Source of the DNA: Trichodelitschia bisporula
Taxonomy: Eukaryota
Direction: 5' to 3'
Assembly: GCA_010356995.1 (NCBI GenBank)
Contig: ML996701.1
Span: 736,963 to 800,962 of the forward strand
DNA: 64,000 nt
The stretch's first letter is position 1, and each line of letters starts with the position of its first letter. A program made the translations under genes and the position numbers. Below the pieces are notes generated by a model. That model saw only the letters and a list, made by a program, of their open reading frames with translations, was not told the DNA's origin and made no database searches. Positions 6,538 through 34,386 of this stretch are shown here, piece after piece.

Positions 6538-6634
6538 GGTTGTGTGGTCTAGTGGTATGATTCTCGCTTAGGGTTCACCCTGAGTTCCACTGGAAACATG
6601 CGAGAGGTCCCGCGTTCAATCCGCGGCACAGCCC
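6538..6634 (+). tRNA. tRNA-Pro(AGG) with 25-nt intron (6574-6598)
   Basis: Acceptor GGTTGTG/CACAGCC, D-arm TGGTCTAGTGG, anticodon arm CTCGC-TTAGGG..T-GCGAG, T-loop GTTCAATC, T-runs downstream. Confidence 0.95.
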
Positions 6635-8466: not shown

Positions 8467-8553
8467 GGCCGCGTGGCCTAATGGTAAGGCGTCTGACTAC
8501 GATTCCTACGGGTTGTGATCAGGAGATTGCAGGTTCGAGACCTGCCGCGGTCA
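8467..8553 (+). tRNA. tRNA-Arg(ACG) with 15-nt intron (8503-8517)
   Basis: Acceptor GGCCGCG/CGCGGTC, anticodon arm TCTGA-CTACGA..A-TCAGG, GTTCGAGAC T-loop, TTTTT terminator. Confidence 0.95.
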
Positions 8554-21413: not shown

Positions 21414-24400
21414 GATTTGGGTGGGTGCATTCTTGTGTCGCTGTATCTAACCAGGGTTGTAGCCTACGTTGGGAGGCATGTCTTGAGCTTTTTTTTTTCT
21501 TGCTGTTATGCTGGGTCGGTACTATGGTGGGTGTATCTGGGCTGGCGGACGGGTGGAGTACGGGTTTTCTGCAATGTTGAGCTTGTGGGGGGTGGGATGG
21601 GTGGCGTGGTGCGGCTTGCGGATGCATTGTTGCTTGGGACGTTGTAGAATGCTTGTGGATGATTGGGGAGAGGGAGACAGATTATACCCTGCGGTCTGGC
21701 TGAGGTGCTGACTGTGGCGACGTGCGCAGACGCGTAGCTTTTTCTTGAGAATCTGATATGAAGAACTTGATTGAGGTGGTGATGATGATGGGTTGTATCT
21801 TTGAAAGAGAAGTCTCCGTCCAACTGACGGAGGAATATGGACTGGATCCATGTCTTAATGATCCCCCACAATATAATCCGTACGAATCCCATAAATCCCA
21901 TCGCCAAATCCCATACGCCTACCCGCGGTTACCCAACTGTCGGGTACCTACCGACGCCGAACCACCCCGACGTGGACAAAGCCTGAGCATTGATGTGGGG
22001 AAGGCGCACATTACTTTTGGGAAGGAACATGATGTCATGCGCGCATGATAGGAGACAGGAGCATAGTAGGATACTTGACATTGTGAGGTGTTGATTCTTG
22101 AGAGTCTCTGACTCTCTTTGTCTTTGACTTCAACTTCAATTTTCAAAGTCGCCTCTGCACGTGAAGAGAGCCTTGCGCCCATTTACCGTAGAACTGCTTC
22201 TCCACGCACTCGACGCCTCTATCGGAACAACCTCCACCACATTCGCCACCCGCGAAGTAGAAATAAGGTTAAATGCCCGTTCCCATTGCTGGGGATGGGT
22301 TTGTAGGGCTGTGGTCTGGATGCACATATCGTACGATTTTATGACTTTGAGGAATGTCCGGGCTGGCGGGGCGGGCCGCTGGCGGGGGGCGCTTGGCGAC
22401 ATTGGTATCCGATTCGAGTGGAATGAGAATGGCATCGAGAATTGCATTGTGCTAGGTAAGAAGAATGGGATTTGGTTTCTAGTGGGAAGGATTATGATGG
22501 ATGATGGGGTTGTGAGGTTGCGCGTGCCTGGCTGTTGTCTCGGAGGAAGCTACGATGGGCGGCTCACCTGTCACAGAACCTGGGCGACTTGACACCACAG
22601 AAATCACGTCGAGAAATTCGATAATATACATCAGAACGTGCTGCAGCACCTCGCGACTCGCATGTCACTTGTACACGCGCACCACGAGGCAATTGAAACG
22701 CGCCCTCCTCACACATGAGACAACAGCGACACAACGTGACAACAAATCCCTCGATATCGCGCTCAGCATCGCGATCGCCGATTCCAACGGGCCAGCTGTC
22801 CCCTTGGTTCTCGACGTCAGCCGGGCTCGAGCGTATTGGGAGGCGTTCACGGGGGCTGGCTCCGGGCGGTGGGTGCAGCGCGGGTCCCCGAAGTCCGAAC
22901 GGGTACGGTGGGGGGCCGATGGGTGCGATGGACCGTACTACGATAGAGGAGGGAACGAGATGGGGTCGGTAACACAGATATCACGAAGCGGGGAGGAGGA
23001 GGCGGAGTTGAGCTTACTGCTTTCTTGCATGCCATGCGAGTGTGCAATGGGGAAGCGTTTGATGCACGTCGCTCGCGCGCTCGTTGTCCCTGGTAAACTG
23101 AGGCACGAGTGGCCGCAGGGTTGCCCGGGTCGCTGCCGATCAGGCACCCCGAGCCGCTTGGGCGTGGCGCTTTACCGTGCGGCTGCTGTGCGGCTGTGCG
23201 CGGTAAGCCTTTTCAACTTTGGGCGTCTCACGAGAGGCTGGGATCGTGCTGAGCTATTTTAGGGGTGTCGTGGAACTGCTGTGAGTTGCTGATGGTGCTT
23301 GGTTGATGATGCTGCGAGTGGTGGTCGTGGGGAGCCTTACAGTAGTGCGGAGCGGTTTGGATGGGCTAGCGGGCAGGGTGCAACGACGTCTGTTACCACA
23401 CTGGATGGTTATGAGGATGGTAAAGGGTGGTACGCTGGCTGTGCCTTCTCCAATATCGCTATCCATATCAATTGACGGTTGATCGCGGGTTGTGCGGCTG
23501 AGGGATGGGGATGTTGGACAGGGTGGGGGGTCCGGAGTGGGGACGGGGTTGGGGAGGGGGGAGAGGAGAAGTGGAGTATCAAAGTTGCTTGGGAGAAAAT
23601 GGAGCAGCGACGTATGCGGCTTCGAGTCTGATTGAGATGTTTCATCAGTGGCGTTGATCGGTTCGTGGCCTTCGTTTTTGCACTGTGGCCTCTTTGCTTT
23701 CCCGATTCAAAGTCCCAACGGGGCGATTTGGGGGACCCGCTGGCGAGGGGATGCGCTCAACAGTTTTGGTCGCTCATATCGGGGTCGACGGGTGGATGAG
23801 GACTGTTGGGACTTGGTAAGGTTTGGGGGAGGAGAGAAAGACACTGCAAAGAGATGAAGTTGGAGATGCAATGGAAGAGAGATCAGACGCCTCTTTTGTT
23901 TCCTCGACGGACGTAGTTCACCCTCTTTCTTGCTCGTCTGATGCGCCATATCCACCGTCGCACCCCCTCGTTCTCTTCTCCTACAGAGCAACCCCAATCT
24001 TCATCCGCACCTCCGCCAGATAGGTGGCCGAGCGGCTGTGCTAGACCACAATCAGCAAGGCGCCGGTTCGGACAACGCTAGAGCTCAACATTGCCATCGG
24101 AGTTGCCAAGACCTTCCATCCCCCCCAAAATAAATCTAGTGATTTCAAGGCTTCGCTTTCCTTTCTCACCTTCTTGCTTGATCTCTCACTCCCTCCTCAA
24201 CCTGTCTGTTGCTGTTTCTGCTTCAGCTAAATAGTCGCTGCTAAAAGACTCCCCATCCTTCCTCCATCACCATCATCGTTCCCCCACTGCCCCAGTGCAT
24301 CCTCCCGCCTTCTCTTTCCCCGCTATTTACCTCCACTTCAGCCGCGGGCTTACATCTTCTCTCCCTCGTGTATATCCAGGCCAGTCGGCTCCGAGCGTTG

Positions 24401-24579
24401 GCTCCTTTAGCACGTTGTAATACTCTTTCTTACCTTTCTGTTGAGCGTTGCCAGTGTGCCCGTAAGTGAACTTTTGCAGCTCTGTTTCCTAGCTGAACCC
24501 GTACGCTCAAAGTCAACCATCGGTCCGAACGGTTCCAACCCGTAGTAATCCCTAATCCTCTTTCCACATAGTCGACTCA

Positions 24580-27500
24580 ATGGGCCTTCCCACAACCAGC
24601 ATGACTTCTAAAAGTGCAAATGGCACCCCGAGCAGCAATGCCGCCAAATACGACCTGCCGTCTCACTTCATCGGAGGAAACCACATCGACGTGGCACCGC
24701 CGAGCAAGATCAAGGACTTTGTTGCCGCACACGGAGGTCACACCGTCATTACGAACGTCCTGATTGCGAACAATGGTATCGCCGCCGTCAAGGAGATCCG
24801 CTCGGTGCGGAAGTGGGCCTATGAGACGTTTGGCGATGAGCGGGCAATCCAGTTCACCGTCATGGCGACGCCTGAAGATTTGCAGGCCAACGCCGACTAC
24901 ATCAGAATGGCGGACCAATACGTTGAGGTAGAGACTTATTCCAGGGAGCATTTTGTGCGGTACTGATGAGTTAGGTTCCCGGTGGCACCAACAACAACAA
25001 CTACGCCAATGTGGAGCTCATTGTGGACGTGGCGGAGCGGATGAACGTGCAAGCAGTGTGGGCTGGATGGTAAGTCGATCTGGAGATGAGAATTTCGTCA
25101 TGCTGATCAGTGTTAGGGGCCATGCGTCCGAAAACCCCAAACTGCCTGAATCGCTCGCCGCGTCGCCGAAGAAGATCGTCTTCATTGGCCCGCCGGGCTC
25201 GGCCATGCGCTCGCTCGGCGACAAGATTTCCTCCACCATCGTCGCACAACACGCCGGTGTTCCCTGTATCCCTTGGTCCGGAACGGGCGTTGATGAGGTG
25301 ACCGTCGACTCCCGTGGCATCGTAACAGTGCCAGACGATGTCTACGACAAGGGCTGCACACACTCGCCCGAGGAGGGTCTTGAGATGGCGAAGAAGATCG
25401 GCTTCCCCGTCATGGTCAAGGCGTCCGAAGGCGGTGGTGGCAAGGGTATCCGCAAGGTCGACAACGAGGAGGACTTCCCGGCCCTTTACCGCGCGGCTGC
25501 TAACGAAATCCCCGGCTCCCCCATCTTCATCATGAAGTTGGCGGGCAATGCGCGCCATCTGGAGGTGCAATTGCTGGCGGATCAGTACGGGAATAACATC
25601 TCTCTCTTCGGCCGTGATTGCTCCGTCCAGCGTCGCCACCAGAAGATTATTGAGGAGGCGCCAGTGACGGTTGCGAAGGCGGAAACCTTCCATGCCATGG
25701 AGAAGGCGGCCGTGTCGCTCGGCAAGCTCGTCGGCTACGTGTCGGCCGGCACTGTTGAGTACCTGTACTCGCACGCCGACGATAAGTTCTACTTCCTCGA
25801 GCTGAACCCGCGTCTGCAGGTCGAGCATCCGACCACCGAGATGGTGACGGGTGTGAACCTGCCCGCTGCGCAGCTGCAGATCGCCATGGGTCTGCCTCTG
25901 CACCGCATTCGTGACATCCGTCTTCTGTATGGCGCAGACCCGCACAGCGCGTCGGTTATCGACTTCGACTTCTCCAATGTGGACAGCTCGAAGGCTCAGC
26001 GTCGGCCGAAGCCCAAGGGCCACACCACGGCTTGCCGTATTACCTCCGAAGATCCAGGGGAGGGCTTCAAGCCGTCCAGCGGCACGATGCACGACCTCAA
26101 CTTCCGGTCCAGCTCCAACGTCTGGGGTTACTTCTCCGTCAGTTCCGCCAGTAGCATTCACTCGTTCTCCGACTCGCAGTTTGGGCACATTTTCGCCTAT
26201 GGTGAGAACCGGCAAGCGTCCCGCAAGCACATGGTCGTCGCGCTCAAGGAACTGAGCATTCGTGGCGATTTCCGCACTACGGTCGAGTATCTCATTAAGC
26301 TGCTCGAGACGCCCGCTTTCGAGGACAACACTATCACTACCGGCTGGTTAGACGAGCTCATCACCAAGAAGCTGACTGCTGAACGGCCCGATCCTACTGT
26401 GGCTGTCATCTGCGGCGCTGTCACCAAGGCTCACATCGCCAGCGAGCAGTGCCTCAACGAGTACCGTGCCAGCTTGGAGAAGGGTCAGGTTCCCGGCAAG
26501 GATGTCCTCAAGACCGTCTTCCCGGTCGACTTCATCTACGACGGTCAGCGGTACAAGTTCACGGCTACACGCTCGAGCGCCGATGCGTACATGCTCTTCA
26601 TCAACGGCTCGCGCTGCTCCGTCGGCGTACGCGCGCTGGCTGATGGTGGTCTCCTGATTCTGCTTGGCGGAAAGTCTCACAACGTCTACTGGAAGGAGGA
26701 GGTTGGTGCTACACGCATTAGCGTCGACAGCAAGACCTGCCTCCTGGAGCAGGAAAACGACCCCACGCAACTGCGCACGCCGTCCCCTGGCAAGCTTGTC
26801 AAGTTCACAGTGGAAAACGGAGAACATATCAAGAAGGGGCAGACCTTTGCTGAGGTCGAGGTCATGAAGATGTACATGCCGCTGATTGCGCAGGAAGACG
26901 GTATTGTCAACCTGATCAAGCAGCCGGGCGCCACCCTCGAGGCTGGTGACATCCTTGGCATACTCGCGCTCGACGACCCATCCAGGGTCAAGTCGGCCAC
27001 GCCCTTCCTGGGCCAGCTCAAGGACTTTGGCCCGCCTGTCGTCCTCGGCTCGAAGCCCTCTCAACGGCTCGTGTACCTGTATACCATCCTTGAGAATATC
27101 CTCAAGGGTTACGACAACCAGGTCATCATGGCCCAGACGCTCAAGGATCTGATTGACGTTCTGCAAGACAAGCAGCTGCCTTACGGCCAATGGGACTCGC
27201 AGGCTTCGGCGCTGCACTCTCGCATGCCCCAGAAGCTCGATGCCCTGCTCGGTTCCATTGTCGAGCGCGCCCGCTCGCGTAAACTCGAATTCCCGGCCAA
27301 GAACCTGCACAAGGCGTTTACGCGTTTCATGGAGGAGAACGTCGCGCCGTCGGACGTGGCGCTGCTGAAGTCCGGCCTGACGCCCCTCATTGACATCATG
27401 ACGTCGTACTCGGAGGGTCTCAAAGTACACGAGTATGATGTGATGATCCAGCTGCTCGAGCAGTACTGGAACGTCGAGAAGCTGTTCTCGTCTCGCACGT

Positions 27501-30500
27501 CCCGCGACGAGGAGGTCATTCTCAAGCTGCGTGATGAGAACCGCGACAACGTCGTGTCTGTTGTACAAACCGTTCTCTCCCACGCGCGCGTCGGTCCCAA
27601 GTCGAACCTCATCACCGCCATCCTCGATGTCTACCGCCCCAACCGTCCCGGGGCCGGCAATGTCGCCAAGTACTTGAAGACGACGCTGCGCAAGCTGGCC
27701 GAGCTCGAGGGTCGACAGGTAGCCAAGGTTGCCCTTAAGGCGCGCGAGGTTCTCATCCAGTGCGCCATGCCATCCCTGGAGGAGCGTACCAGCCAGATGG
27801 AGCACATCCTGCGCTCGTCCGTCATTCAGAGCAAGTACGGCGAGACGGGCATGGAACATCGCGAGCCCAACTTCGACGCGATCCGTGACGTGGTCGACTC
27901 GCAGTACACCGTCTTTGATGTGCTGCCGCAGTTCTTCGCTCACCATGATCCGTGGGTCGCGCTTGCTGCGCTCGAGGTGTACATCCGTCGCGCGTACAGG
28001 GCTTATCTGCTCAAGGATATCCAGTACAATGTTGATGACACGCCGTTTGTCCTGGTGTGGGAGTTTGCCCTGCGCAAGGTTGGCCAGGCTGAGTTTGGCT
28101 TGCCGGCCGAGAACTCCTATCCCGGCACTCCGGGCACGCCGGCCAGCTTCGCCAGCGAGATCACGCCCAAGCGTGTACAGTCAATTTCTGACATGACCTA
28201 CTTCAGCTCCAAAGAGGCCGAGCCCACCCGTAAGGGTGCCATCGTTCCCGTTGCCTTCTTCGACGACGCGGAGGATTCCCTGATGCGCGCACTCAACATG
28301 TTCCCGTCGACCAGGGTTGGCAGACCTTCCGGTCTGCTTGCCGATTTGTCGCGTAACCGCGGCGGTCCGCAGATCAAGGCCGATAAGGCTGAGGACCTGG
28401 CCGCGGTTGTCAACGTTGCCGTTTCTGACGCTGAGAGCTTCGATGATGAGAAAATTTTGGAGCGCATCCTCCCGATTGTCAAGGAGGTCCGCGAGGAGCT
28501 GCTCTCGCGCCATGTGCGCCGTCTCACTTTCATCTGCGGCCACAAGGACGGCACGTACCCCGGCTACTTCACGTTCCGCGGGCCTGCGTACGACGAAGAT
28601 CTCAGCATCCGTCACGTGGATCCTGCTCTTGCTTTCCAGCTTGAGCTTGGCCGTCTTTCCAAGTTCAACATCAAGCCCGTTTTTACCGAAAATCGTAATA
28701 TTCACATTTACGAGGCTATCGGCAAGGGCGCGGAGAACGACAAGCGCTACTTCACTCGCGCCACGGTCCGTCCTGGCCGTCTACGGGATGAGGTCCCGCT
28801 TGCCGAGTACATCATCTCGGAGGCTGACCGCCTGATGAATGACATCCTGGATGCCCTAGAGATCATTGGCAACAACAACTCTGACATGAACCACATCTTC
28901 ATCAACTTCTCGCACGTCTTCTCGCTGAACCCCAAGGAGGTAGAGGAATCGCTCGGCCCCCTGATCGCGCGTTTCGGCCCCCGCGCGTGGCGCCTGCGCG
29001 TCACCGGCGTCGAGGTGCGCATCATCTGCACCGACCCGCAAACTGGTGCTCCGTACCCGCTCCGCATCGTCATCAACAACACGTCTGGCTTTATCGTCGA
29101 CGTGGAGTTATACGCCGAGCGCAAGTCGGACAAAGGCAACGAGTGGGTGTTCCACTCCACCGGCGGTAGCACGAAGGTTGGCGCCATGCACCTGCGGCCC
29201 GTGGGCACGCCGTACCCGACCAAGGGTGCGTTGCAGCCCAAGCGCTACAAGGCCCACATCATGGGCACGCAGTACGTCTACGACTTCCCGGAGCTCTTCC
29301 GCCAAGCCATCGAGAACTCGTGGATCGACACCGTCAAGGCGCATCCGTACCTCAAGGAGCGCCAGCCGAAGCAGGGCGAGTGCCTCGAGTACAACGAGCT
29401 CGTCCTTGACGACCAGGATAACCTCGTAGAGGTCAACCGCGAGCCTGGTACGAACACCATCGGTATGGTGGGCTGGCTCGTCACGGCTCGCACGCCGGAG
29501 TATCCCAAGGGTCGGCGCTCGGTCATCATTGCCAACGATATCACCTTCAAGATTGGCAGCTTCGGCCCCGCCGAGGACCGCTTCTTCCACAAGTGCTCTG
29601 AGCTGGCGCGCCGTCTCGGCATTCCGCGTATCTACCTGAGTGCCAACTCGGGTGCGCGCCTGGGCATGGCCGAGGAGATCATCCCGCACTTCGAGGTCGC
29701 GTGGAACGACAAGAACAAGCCGGAGAAGGGCTTCAAGTACCTGTACCTCACGCCCGACAAGAAGAAGCGCTTTGAGGACAGCGGTCGCCGCGATGTCATC
29801 ACCGAGGAGGTTGTGGAAGATGGCGAGACGCGCCACAAGCTTACCACCATCGTCGGTGCTGAGGACGGTCTTGGCGTCGAGTGCTTGCGTGGCTCGGGCT
29901 TGATTGCCGGTGAGACCAGCCGGGCTTACGAGGACATCTTCACCATCACCCTGGTGACGTGCCGCTCCGTCGGTATTGGTGCCTACCTCGTGCGTCTCGG
30001 TCAGCGTACCATCCAAATCGAAGGCCAGCCTATCATCCTGACGGGCGCGCCGGCCATCAACAAGCTGCTCGGCCGTGATGTCTACACTTCGAATCTGCAG
30101 CTCGGCGGCACGCAGATCATGTACCGCAACGGTGTGTCGCACATGACGGCCGAGGATGACTTCGCCGGCGTGTGCAAGATCGTCAAGTGGATGTCGTTCG
30201 TGCCGGACAAGAAGGGCAACCCTGTGCCCATCTCGCCCTCCGTCGATGTCTGGGATCGCGATGTCGTCTACTACCCCCCGCAGAAGCAGCCGTACGATGT
30301 GCGCTGGCTGATTGGCGGTAAGGACGACGAGGAGGGCTTCATGTCTGGTCTGTTCGACCGCGGCTCTTTCGAGGAGACGCTCGGCGGGTGGGCCAAGACT
30401 GTTGTCGTCGGTCGTGCGCGCCTCGGCGGTATCCCCGTCGGTGTCATCGGCGTCGAGGTCCGCTCGGTTGAGAACGTCACACCCGCTGACCCTGCCAACC

Positions 30501-31489
30501 CGGAGTCCATCGAGCAAATCACCTCCGAAGCAGGTGGTGTGTGGTACCCGAACTCGGCGTTCAAGACGGCGCAAGCCATCCGCGACTTCAACAATGGCGA
30601 GCAGCTGCCACTCATGATCCTGGCCAACTGGCGCGGTTTCTCCGGCGGCCAGCGCGACATGTACAACGAAGTCCTCAAGTACGGCTCGTACATCGTCGAC
30701 GCACTCGTCAAGTACGAGCAGCCGGTCTTCGTGTACATCCCGCCCTTCGGCGAGCTGCGCGGCGGCTCCTGGGTCGTCGTCGACCCGACCATCAACCCCG
30801 ACTACATGGAGATGTACGCCGACGAGGAGGCCCGCGGCGGTGTGCTCGAGCCCGAGGGCATCGTGAACATCAAGTTCCGCAAGGAGAAGCAGCTGCAAAC
30901 CATGGCGCGCCTGGACCCAACCTACGCTGAACTCAAGGCTAAGCTCGCCGATGCGTCGCTCTCGGCTGAGCAGCAGGCCAAGGTCAAGGCTGCGATGACG
31001 GAGCGCGAGCAGACCCTCCTGCCTGTCTATGCGCAGATCAGCATCCAGTTCGCGGATCTGCATGATCGGGCTGGGCGCATGATGGCCAAGGGCGTGATTC
31101 GCGCGCCGCTGAAGTGGACCGAGAGCAGGCGGTTCTTCTACTGGCGCCTGCGCCGCCGTCTTAACGAAGAGTATATCCTGAAGAAGATGACTGGGGCCGA
31201 GGGCAACGAGGTTGGTGGTACCCGGGCTGGTCGCCTGGCGCTGCTGCGCGCTTGGTCGGGCGTGGAGCGGTTTGAGACTGCGGATCGCGATGTCGCGGTT
31301 TGGTATGAGGAGAAGCGCAAGGAGACGGCAGCGAGAATTGAGACCCTCCGCCGCGAGGGGGTGGTTAGCGATGTGGTTTCCCTCTGGGGTAAGGATAAGG
31401 AGGGGGTTGTGAAGGGGGTGAGGCACATGCTGTCCATGATGCCGGTTGAGGAGCGGGAGGAGGCGCTGAAGTTGTTGGCCCGCGGCTAG
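24580..31489 (+). CDS. ACC1: Acetyl-CoA carboxylase
   Basis: BC domain ([35 protein letters not shown]), biotinyl motif EVMKM, Snf1/AMPK-site-like [11 protein letters not shown] domain ([22 protein letters not shown]). Introns about 24928-24975 and 25050-25096, plus a probable 5'UTR intron 24462-24571. Start may be 24601. Confidence 0.98.
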
Positions 31490-31861
31490 GGGGCTTGGTT
31501 TAGGGCGGGGACGGGGGCGGGTGCGAAGGCTCGCTCTGTGGAGTGTGGTGGCGAGTTTGAGGAGGTTAATCCCATCATGGAGGACGATGGGGTGGAAAGG
31601 AAGAGTGATGTTGTGAGGGGGAAGATTATGCGGAAGGATAGGGCGGGGAGTATCGTTGCGCCGACTGCTGAGGTGGTGGATGCTCCTGCGGAACAGGAGA
31701 AGGAAATCGAAAAGGAAAAGGAGGCACCGGTGTACGAGCCGCTCGCATCAACGGACGTCGGCTTGGTTGCCGGAGGGGTTGCTTTCGCGGCTCATGCGTG
31801 CTGGGTTATGGGTGTTGTTGCGAGTTTTGTTTGGGAGTGGGCTTTCTCGCTTTTGTGCTAA
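31490..31861 (+). other. Stop-free in-frame continuation of the ACC1 reading frame (123 codons; alternatively a 94-aa ORF from ATG 31577)
   Basis: After TAG 31487-31489 the same frame stays open to TAA 31859-31861. An E/K-rich linker is followed by a hydrophobic C-terminus. Confidence 0.45.
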
Positions 31862-32485
31862 TGCGTTCTTGACGTTTTTTGTTGCATGATGGATAGGGAT
31901 GGTGTAGAATAGATGGTGCGGTTGTGGAGCGTTGAATGCATTGGCTTGACGATAAATTTGTCTTGTCGTGAGTGCCTGTGGTATCGTGATTGCTGATGAG
32001 GATTCCCTTCTATCCCAATTTTACTCAACACCTCTCCGCACGCCTGTCCAACCTTGCCAGCTGATAAAGGTGCGTCGTCTCCTCCAACTTTTATGTCACT
32101 CTCTTAAAGAATCGTAGACATCGTGAGGCTGACCGACTGCCTCAGATTACTGTGAGGCATGTGGCTCAGCCGTGTCTGATGTGGCTCGTATCGGACAAGT
32201 CGGCAACTCGGGTGCAAGGACTCGAGCCGTTCTCGGCCCTATCGCATGCAAACTGACGGCACGTCATGGCCTCCAACCAACCACAGCCCCCATCATCGCT
32301 CCATCGCACGCGATCCCGGCCTCACGACCTGCAGCAAAGCTCGAAGCACGCAGAAACCGTGGCAATGTCTTGCTCCGACGAATCCCGTCTTTTCTCCGCC
32401 CGCCGCCGGCAGGAAGTCGCGAATCCCATCTCCCTCTCGCCATCAAAATTGCCCCACTACCCCACTAAGAGCCTCAAACCTCACC

Positions 32486-33922
32486 ATGTCCCTCCTCTCC
32501 AAACCCTTCAAGTGGCTCTACCATGAATTCGGCCTCTCCTCCGTCACGGCCACGGGCCGCGACGCCCAACTCATCATCCTCACGCGCTGCTGCCGCATGT
32601 TCGCCTACGGCACCAACTCCCTCATGCTCGCGCTCTTCTTTTCCGCGCTCGGCTTCGCAGACTACCAAATCGGCCTCTTCATGACTCTGACGCTTCTCGG
32701 CGACGTCTTGCTCAGCCTCTTCCTGACCCTGATCGCCGACCGCGTGGGCCGGCGCCGCGTGCTCCTCGCTGGGTCGGCGCTGATGGTCATGTCTGGCGCG
32801 ACCTTTGCGCTGAGCGATAATTTCTGGATACTGCTGCTTGCGGCGGTGATTGGGGTTATTAGTGCGACGGGGGGGGATTTTGGACCTTTTCGTGCGATTG
32901 AGGAGAGTACGTTGAGTCATCTGACGGGCCCGAAGACGAGGTCGGATGTGCTGTCGTGGTATGTTATGATGAGCAGTATGGGCTCGAGCCTGGGGACGGA
33001 GGTGAGCGGCCGCGTGATCACCTGGCTCCAGGCGCGCGATGGGTGGTCACTGCCGGATGCGTACCATGCCATCTTTTGGGTGTACACCGGGATGGGGCTC
33101 GTCAATGCGATTCTGGTGTGGTGCCTATCCGACGCATGCGAGCTGCAGACCCCGTCCGGCAGCGACGAGGCGGCCGGGATCCTCCTCGTCTCGGACTCGG
33201 AATCGGACGACGAAGGCTCCTCCACGCCCGCTCCGGCGCCGGCTAAGAAGAAGTCTGGCTTCTTCAGCCTCTTCGCGGCGATCAGCCCGCGGACGCGAAC
33301 CACGATGTACAAGCTCTGGTTCCTGCTCATCGTGGACAGCCTCGCGGATGGTATGGTGCCCTACAGCCTGACGAACTACTACATGGACCGCAAGTTCCAC
33401 CTCCCGGCGAGCACGCTCGGGGACGTGACGTCCGCGAGCTACGTCCTCTCAAGCGTAGGCACTGCGTTCGCAGCGCCGCTGGCGCGCCGGCTCGGGCTGA
33501 TTAACACCATGGTGTTCACGCACATCCCGAGTTCGCTGGCCGTGCTCGTTTTCCCCGCGCCGCCGGGGGTGGTGCTCACTGTCATTTTACTGTTTATCCG
33601 CACGGGGCTGAACAACATGGACCAAGCGCCGCGGTCCGCGTTCATTGCCGCGGTGGTGCTGCCGGAGGAGCGCACGGCGGTGATGGGGATTACGAGTATG
33701 CTGCGAACGCTGGCGAGTACGGCTGGCCCGACGGTGACGGGGGTGCTTGCTGGGAATGATCGGTTTTGGATTGCGTTTGTTGCTGCTGGGGCGTTGCGGT
33801 TGGCGTATGATTTGGGGTTGTGGGCGATGTTTGTGAATATGAGGGTTGATGGGGATAGGAAGGAGGAAGGCAATGATGTGCAGATGACGGAGGTCAGGAA
33901 GAAGAATGGGAGTACGGTGTAA
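32486..33922 (+). CDS. MFS transporter (intronless)
   Basis: About 12 hydrophobic helices, MFS motif A (ADRVGRRRVL), GGDFGPFRAIEES, MDQAPRSAF. Confidence 0.9.
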   Translation: MSLLSKPFKWLYHEFGLSSVTATGRDAQLIILTRCCRMFAYGTNSLMLALFFSALGFADYQIGLFMTLTLLGDVLLSLFLTLIADRVGRRRVLLAGSALMVMSGATFALSDNFWILLLAAVIGVISATGGDFGPFRAIEESTLSHLTGPKTRSDVLSWYVMMSSMGSSLGTEVSGRVITWLQARDGWSLPDAYHAIFWVYTGMGLVNAILVWCLSDACELQTPSGSDEAAGILLVSDSESDDEGSSTPAPAPAKKKSGFFSLFAAISPRTRTTMYKLWFLLIVDSLADGMVPYSLTNYYMDRKFHLPASTLGDVTSASYVLSSVGTAFAAPLARRLGLINTMVFTHIPSSLAVLVFPAPPGVVLTVILLFIRTGLNNMDQAPRSAFIAAVVLPEERTAVMGITSMLRTLASTAGPTVTGVLAGNDRFWIAFVAAGALRLAYDLGLWAMFVNMRVDGDRKEEGNDVQMTEVRKKNGSTV

Positions 33923-34294
33923 AATGACGGGTGGTGCTTTTGGTAGGATGAGGACGGGGAAAGGGGGCGTTTCTGAATAGATTGAAAATGGCGAGGAGGG
34001 GTTTGATAGAGGCTCTAGTTCTACACCCTATATCCGTTATGACGCTGACTGTGCGTATCCCTATTGATGTTGTAGAAGGCGTGTGTCGTGATAAGAAGCT
34101 GCCACTGAACGCCGACTCCATGGCCCCGGGCTTGAGTTAGCTCGAATTTAGATGCGCATAGCTTCATGATGGAATAATTGATAGACGACTAGTTCCGCAC
34201 AGTACCGCCCTAACAGCTGTCATCAACGCCGGATCGACTGTCTCTCTGCGCGGTGGGCACCTGATCATTCACTTGCATCATTCCAACATGAAGA

Positions 34295-34386
34295 GCGTTG
34301 GTGGTTTAGTGGTAAAATCCGTCGTTGCCATCCGAAGCAATTCGGGATGATTCGACGGGCCCCGGGTTCGATTCCCGGCCGACGCA
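34295..34386 (+). tRNA. tRNA-Gly(GCC) with 21-nt intron (34331-34351)
   Basis: Acceptor GCGTTGG/CCGACGC-A, anticodon arm CGTCG-TTGCCA..T-CGACG, GGTTCGATTCC, T-run downstream. Confidence 0.95.

Follow-up and report, generated by a model that had tools for sequence, protein, structure and literature searches.

ACC1 encodes acetyl-CoA carboxylase, the rate-limiting enzyme of fatty-acid synthesis. The ACC1 gene of Trichodelitschia bisporula, a Dothideomycete of the order Phaeotrichales, was analyzed within the window, meaning the whole stretch of 64,000 nucleotides of DNA, in which all positions are counted. It is followed, in its own reading frame, by a long open region that closes at a second stop codon (Table 1); this region and the peptide that it would encode are called the extension below. 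The last 39 residues of ACC1 are identical to those of P0001, named by its source acetyl-CoA carboxylase acc1 of Trichodelitschia bisporula. The spliced ACC1 leader (24210-24579) carries an in-frame stop 8 codons 5' of ATG 24580; therefore, a non-AUG N-terminal extension is not available in that frame. An ordinary, intronless MFS transporter gene (32486-33922) lies downstream and is covered by RNA contigs from 32432 to 33990. The window also contains tRNA genes for Pro (with an intron, 6538-6634), Arg (8467-8553), and Gly (with an intron, 34295-34386).

Table 1. Features of the ACC1 locus, with positions in the window
Feature	Position	Strand	Basis
ACC1 leader intron	24462-24512	+	Joined in RNA contigs
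ACC1 coding region (acetyl-CoA carboxylase, 2271 aa)	24580-31489	+	Pfam ACC domains; introns 24928-24974 and 25070-25116
Candidate 72-nt intron, in phase: donor GTGAGG, GCTGAA (31465-31470) as a branch-like motif, CTAG acceptor coinciding with the stop	31418-31489	+	Signals; not seen spliced
Ancestral ACC1 stop TAG, next base G	31487-31489	+	Homologue ends; RNA contigs
123-codon in-frame open region with TAA, coding-like, 3'-end-type codon pattern	31490-31861	+	Shuffles, periodicity, codon usage
29 codons separating the stop from the first ATG	31490-31576	+	Coding-like in the ACC1 frame
Four G-runs, G-quadruplex motif, first base 13 bases past the stop	31503-31521	+	Pattern match, predicted
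G-free patch with ATG 31577 in strong start context; start of the 94-aa ORF	31566-31579	+	Start matrix; public model KAF2398227.1 (89 aa)
Predicted single C-terminal helix, hydrophobic (extension residues 89-122)	31754-31855	+	AlphaFold2 single sequence, hydropathy
Non-coding trailer after the second stop	31862-31956	+	No codon signal; contig ends

The ACC1 stop codon and the RNA that crosses it

The ends of ACC proteins were compared with the position of the TAG. Among the best 120 of 3174 proteins, 117 ended in the TAG column and 3 ended one residue earlier, while none ended later. When 808 candidates were searched for long proteins bearing the extension, the ACC1 of this genome was its sole carrier. 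Judged by these homologue ends, the TAG is the true and old end of ACC1. A genome sequencing error or a premature stop was excluded, as the TAG is present in the RNA and the homologues end there.

The RNA came from two runs of one sample and was kept as contigs, which drop rare forms; it was taken as RNA since the contigs are spliced. The contigs were joined at the three upstream ACC1 introns and ran over the stop without a break, as far as 31880 in X2 and 31956 in X1; they lack coverage of 31982-32315, a gap that was given no weight as evidence. Neither letters other than TAG nor further joints were found at the stop among the 13 contig pieces listed of 23. At the ACC1 stop, the predominant RNA shows neither editing nor splicing. 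One contig spans both ACC1 and the 94-residue open reading frame that starts at ATG 31577, although a contig does not equal a single transcript. The first-pass annotation had named a poly(A) site before about 31860 as evidence against an extension; the contigs continue past the second stop, though contigs cannot show where RNAs end. We place the poly(A) site tentatively at 31956, which would give a trailer of 467 bases from the TAG and 95 bases from the TAA, next to 68 bases for the trailer of the neighboring MFS gene.

Coding signal and predicted structure of the open frame

The 123 open in-frame codons that the first-pass annotation reported after the ACC1 TAG were borne out, together with the quoted peptide: 123 sense codons occupy 31490-31858 and are closed by a TAA at 31859-31861. 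Chance produced so long an open frame in 0.3% of 20,000 mononucleotide shuffles and in 0.9% of 20,000 dinucleotide shuffles. The chi-square of base by codon position gave p = 3e-8 for the extension and 9e-8 for the last 123 ACC1 codons, compared with p = 0.52 for the 123 triplets past the TAA. Codon-usage z was 5.3 to 6.3 in the ACC1 frame, whereas both remaining plus-strand frames gave -2 to -3. Under a codon model built from long ORFs of the same genome (n=127), the extension reached z = 5.9 relative to open-frame shuffles and 6.3 relative to plain ones. This codon signal is absent from the first-pass annotation. An in-frame coding signature after the stop, which is a trait of programmed readthrough, is found in the extension. 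An antisense gene was rejected, with minus-strand frames at z of at most 3.1 versus 6.3. The minus strand opposite ACC1 carries an open frame of 879 codons (29108-31747) that extends into the extension, and it was taken as a codon-bias shadow.

The codon signal was then resolved along the region. In 30-codon windows it was unbroken across the stop and faded only in the hydrophobic end. The 29 codons 5' of ATG 31577 scored z 2.6 (p 0.004), and z 2.4 (p 0.005) when G-run codons were removed. The charged linker of 55 codons, from ATG 31577 on, was the strongest segment (z 4.8), and the hydrophobic end of 39 codons was the weakest (z 1.7), scoring neither as a coding end nor as a trailer. On a coding-end versus trailer score, the 29-codon stretch lay above 94/94 comparison trailers and 23/23 open-frame trailers, a contrast inflated by the pre-filtering of the 94-end set for no coding signal after the stop, so that the shuffle test is the fairer one. 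The ORF here had G3 of 0.58 and C3 of 0.07, a pattern matched by 0/36 gene starts and 28/94 gene ends. Across 864 kb of the same genome, starts and leaders were C-rich (median skew -0.2 to -0.3), and ends were G-rich (+0.28 just before the stop).

Scoring of the coding ORF ends in these 864 kb (n=258) gave a post-stop z of at least 4 in 23, 22, and 21 cases for frames 0, 1, and 2, respectively, an even spread that is expected from introns. The 23 frame-0 cases comprised 17 with a strong intron signal by a permissive test that was also positive at 26/94 presumed true ends, 4 with a donor recognized by eye, and 1 without a coding run-up, leaving ACC1.

Compositional accident was considered as an explanation of the open frame: a stop-poor, G-rich trailer with decayed triplet repeats would mimic codon bias, and T-rich DNA would supply the hydrophobic end. 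G makes up 43% of the region, the case is one picked from thousands of genes, and 1/94 ordinary ends is likewise open for at least 123 codons. According to the available part of one preprint, T-rich non-coding DNA favors hydrophobic tails, which are degraded or sent to membranes (10.1101/2022.07.20.500724), and the chance frames behind ACC1 of relatives are alike, with hydrophobic tails in L100, L115, L118, and L121. However, z remains about 6 even with composition held fixed, and the repeats in the extension are only short and scattered. Among the six other ORF ends with G of at least 0.38 in the unfiltered set of 127, five had a frame-0 z of at most 1.3; the sixth reached z 4.5, with a frame open for just 16 codons and a coding run-up that is weak. 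The first-pass annotation had likewise pointed to a possible chance ORF in a stop-poor, G-rich 3' UTR. Compositional accident is already weakened, and we give it little chance.

The structure of the extension was predicted from the lone sequence by AlphaFold2. Residues 1-88 were disordered, followed by the helix, with pLDDT about 90 over residues 101-123. The last 34 residues contain a single charged residue, and no basic residue follows the helix. The best 19-residue hydropathy was 1.88; a comparable peak fell within the last 40 residues in 0.45% of whole-region shuffles, and it was reached in 15% of cases when just the last 117 bases were shuffled with the frame kept open. The hydrophobic end is only modestly beyond the expectation from its G/T-rich DNA. 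Regarding the membrane-anchor-like tail described in the first-pass annotation, a hydrophobic terminal helix is indeed predicted, whereas its distinctiveness is lessened by the local shuffles that reach the same hydropathy. A tail anchor is possible on these predictions. For any portion of ACC1 that carries it, the helix would serve either as a tail anchor in a membrane or as a degradation signal, with about an even chance for each.

Fungal Tom6 (PF17112) resembles the extension in having a soluble, charged portion and a single hydrophobic helix at the C-terminus, and it gave a weak Pfam match. The match was rejected at 11.2-13.2 bits versus a cut-off of 18.8 (E 0.06-0.27). Profile positions 33-45 were unmatched, and no Tom6 chain was found in solved structures. 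A whole-genome search found Tom5, barely found Tom7, and found Tom6 nowhere, including this locus; the missing Tom6 matches probably reflect a sensitivity limit for small intron-split genes, which makes the search too insensitive to decide.

Relatives, origin, and the 94-residue reading frame

A metagenome scan confirmed 240 ACC1 ends, of which 80 (54-65% identical) were kept; 63 were distinct and 61 untruncated, with several near-duplicates among them. None of the 61 distinct, distant flanks was open for 123 codons in the ACC1 frame (median 15, maximum 109), and openness behind the stops was no greater in that frame than in other frames. Periodicity comparable to that of the extension was not found in these flanks (lowest p 0.004), nor did the peptide or the DNA of the extension match any of them. 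The first-pass annotation had regarded lack of conservation of the frame in relatives as evidence against an extension, and the frame is not conserved at these distances. By this comparison, the extension lacks deep conservation. The ACC1 stops of the 63 distinct loci were TAG in 33, TGA in 20, and TAA in 10. In L135, past 3088, 88 open codons follow the ACC1 TGA; they begin with an acidic low-complexity stretch, show periodicity at p 0.04, and are unlike the extension. In L136, L095, and L108, a same-strand neighbor with a hydrophobic N-terminus lies downstream of ACC1, which we take to resemble an SLC1-type acyltransferase.

Homologues of the extension were sought in several collections. Among 1.84 billion representatives, none was found except the public 89-residue gene model from the locus itself. 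Among longer proteins, none of 1143 candidates reached E <= 1, and in its own genome the extension found itself only. The one other match among the representatives, P0122 (bacterial Ig-like repeats, E 2.5e-4), was taken as compositional. The Atlas gave no usable match for the 123-mer, and its best value was 0.81 for the 89-aa model. Solved structures gave no match to the extension by sequence or by fold. A duplicated ACC1 end was also tried and rejected: weak tblastn matches (E about 1) to the C-terminal helix of relatives' ACC1 failed the shuffles, as 14-22% of 2000 global shuffles matched the profile score, with p 0.38 for the own pair and p 0.56 for DNA. The extension is real and coding-like, so far species-limited, and lies behind an ancestral stop.

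These data bear on the explanation of the extension as a relic, that is, once-coding DNA that is now a 3' trailer and not usefully translated. Its source would be the 3' end of a lost neighbor, which a deletion moved next to the ACC1 stop, or a once-constitutive extension. Such a relic accounts, with no recoding, for the gene-end codons, the natural-looking stop with a short trailer, and the absence in relatives, and it fits the RNA contigs, which show the ordinary form alone. However, no source gene was found in the own genome, among the 1143 longer candidates, or among the representatives, and the junction must fall in frame and within a few codons of the stop. A long ACC1 end was seen in 0/120 proteins (best 120 of 3174), and the test for a duplicated ACC1 end gave no support for that origin. 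We consider a relic doubtful.

The second explanation to be weighed is an orphan protein of 94 residues translated from ATG 31577, either through re-initiation on the ACC1 message or from a separate start site that lies within the 3' end of ACC1, with ACC1 unextended. The first-pass annotation had ranked this dicistronic reading last, and the start context raises it. ATG 31577 scored 4.6 on the start matrix, higher than 89% of 36 presumed true starts; this score was reached by 0/569 trailer ATGs, 3/279 late Met codons, and 2/1049 internal Met codons, although the matrix was built from just these 36 heuristically chosen starts and gives ACC1's own start -2.2. The ATG lies inside the longest G-free run (13 nt) of the 1074 bases from 30887 to 31960, the codon signal peaks from it onward (z 4.8), and KAF2398227.1 shares the same start. 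However, the last intron of this public model (31837-32145, inferred from the model end) is unused in the RNA contigs. The pyrimidine-rich leader is missing (lowest of 36), and the codons are of the 3' type, unlike 36/36 starts. Furthermore, the 87-base gap must be in frame (1 in 3), open (0.37), and coding-like (p 0.004) by chance.

Comparable gaps are known from fungal dicistronic messages, for which the accessible text of PMC4471562 gives 26 to 443 bases between ORFs, even behind a 9-kb ORF, and for which re-initiation is proposed in the accessible text of PMC10352335. As excerpted from these two sources, the glpks3-glnrps7-type loci of Glarea lozoyensis and IGG6 re-initiation (PMC4471562, PMC10352335) likewise combine a long ORF, a short gap, and a second ORF with a strong, A/C-rich start context. 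A functional-looking second start, a trait of dicistronic messages, is present at ATG 31577. As far as the same excerpts go, the ACC1 locus differs from them in that its second ORF is a 94-residue orphan, its gap is in frame and coding-like, and the IGG6 9-mer is absent.

The two ends of the gap point in different directions: the coding-like stretch before ATG 31577 (29 codons) favors an extended ACC1, and the strong start context at ATG 31577 favors a separate 94-residue protein. The coincidence needed is about 1 in several hundred for a separate gene versus about 1 in 30 for an extension. From these unequal coincidences and uncertain priors, we tentatively read the region as a young, lineage-limited, minor ACC1 isoform, whatever its route, at somewhat less than an even chance, and we rate the separate protein as unlikely but far from negligible. 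RNA contigs that run past the second stop, together with the coding signal from the stop on, keep a hidden extension of ACC1 as the leading reading.

Proposed routes past the stop and comparison with known systems

In an extended ACC1, most ribosomes would halt at the ancestral UAG and yield normal ACC1, and some would pass the stop, giving an ACC1 lengthened by about 88 residues of charged, unstructured linker and by a single hydrophobic helix at its C-terminus. Passage of the stop is suggested by the codon signal, which is continuous from the stop to the TAA. We infer the translation, the route past the stop, and the anchor alike. Three routes had been proposed in the first-pass annotation, namely readthrough, A-to-I editing, and splicing.

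Editing of UAG to UGG is the least probable of them. T. bisporula is a Dothideomycete, and the stop is paired in the minimum-energy fold, although this fold is no better than those of shuffles (z -0.59). No A>G at 31488 was seen in the RNA contigs of the two runs of one sample, from which rare variants are dropped. The TAG, whose retention is a trait of editing, was not kept across relatives (33/63 distinct, distant loci). Editing has been seen in Sordariomycetes and one Pezizomycete, and not in one Eurotiomycete and one Leotiomycete, in the accessible part of PMC11156358. The Tad2-Tad3-Ame1 editing activity arose in Sordariomycetes and separately in Pezizomycetes, as stated in the available portion of 10.1101/2023.10.18.562923. 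The stop-loss editing of Sordariomycete DBF2, as far as PMC13123824 and PMC11156358 are accessible, shares a TAG and a long, mostly disordered in-frame extension with ACC1. Of the species compared for DBF2, 94% keep the TAG and 82% have it within a hairpin loop; the edit was observed in RNA (PMC13123824, accessible part). In contrast, ACC1 belongs to a Dothideomycete, its stop lies in a predicted stem, the stops of relatives are mixed, and no edit was seen in the RNA contigs. We give editing next to no chance as the route.

Rare splicing of the in-phase 72-nt intron was given a small chance. The candidate donor GTGAGG (31418) lies in phase 0, the last base of CTAG is 31489, and the branch GCTGAA, which the first-pass annotation had called weak, is identical to that of the RNA-proven intron 1 of the same gene. 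A comparable set of donor, branch, and acceptor was found at 4/44 terminal TAG stops. The signals are plausible, but the 31417/31490 junction was absent from the RNA contigs, from which rare variants are dropped, and splicing would delete 23 conserved ACC1 residues.

Leaky termination at UAG-G, perhaps aided by the G-quadruplex motif downstream, is the most likely of the three routes, though its chance is well below even. UAG-G is the commonest stop context here (18/94). In a yeast study tabulated in the accessible part of PMC4615788, no UAG context is leakier, and the same part assigns UAG-G followed by a structure to type III readthrough in viruses. A G-quadruplex motif within 60 bases of the stop was present at 5/127 long-ORF ends, and the predicted fold energy changed from -53.7 to -61.1 kcal/mol once quadruplexes were allowed. 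Direct support for quadruplex-aided readthrough was not found in a literature search. No known strong readthrough signal was found at the ACC1 stop, neither UGA-CUA nor CAAUYA (the TAG is followed by GGGGCT), and Rfam gave no match. A search for an amber-suppressor tRNA gave 35 consensus-pattern matches (reversed control 94), none of them a tRNA with a CTA anticodon.

The most specific form of the leading reading is a membrane-tethered ACC made through quadruplex-aided leaky UAG-G, newborn from 3' trailer DNA, alongside which a free 94-residue anchor peptide may occur; this combination is improbable as a whole. A literature search, mostly of journals open without subscription, found no report of a tail-anchored, read-through, or dicistronic ACC. 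If true, an extended ACC1 would place the rate-limiting enzyme of fatty-acid synthesis at a membrane without a second gene. It would use a tail anchor instead of the short fungal peroxisomal tags, on a protein with an otherwise fixed end (120/120). If the separate protein were the true product, the locus would show re-initiation or an internal start occurring naturally behind a 2271-codon ORF. Under either reading, it offers a clean, testable example of new coding sequence inside a 3' trailer, with a weight limited to one non-model species so far.

In its way of working, the ACC1 extension is like the cryptic C-terminal isoforms, but it lacks one or more traits of each named family that could be tested. 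Freitag 2012 reportedly described cryptic peroxisomal isoforms of fungal metabolic enzymes. The LLC end of the extension does not fit the PTS1 consensus. Type III viral readthrough, in the accessible part of PMC4615788, shares with ACC1 the UAG-G and a predicted structure about 13 bases downstream; there the viral element is a pseudoknot, whereas ACC1 has a G-quadruplex motif alone, of the kind also seen at the 5/127 ORF ends. Fungal cryptic peroxisomal isoforms, as described in the available part of PMC4207609, use UGA-CUA and a short PTS1, whereas ACC1 has UAG-GGG and 123 residues ending in LLC, with conservation not found. Within the same part of that source (PMC4207609), they too involve an enzyme of central metabolism whose C-terminus can carry a concealed in-frame addition, with a possible change of its place in the cell.
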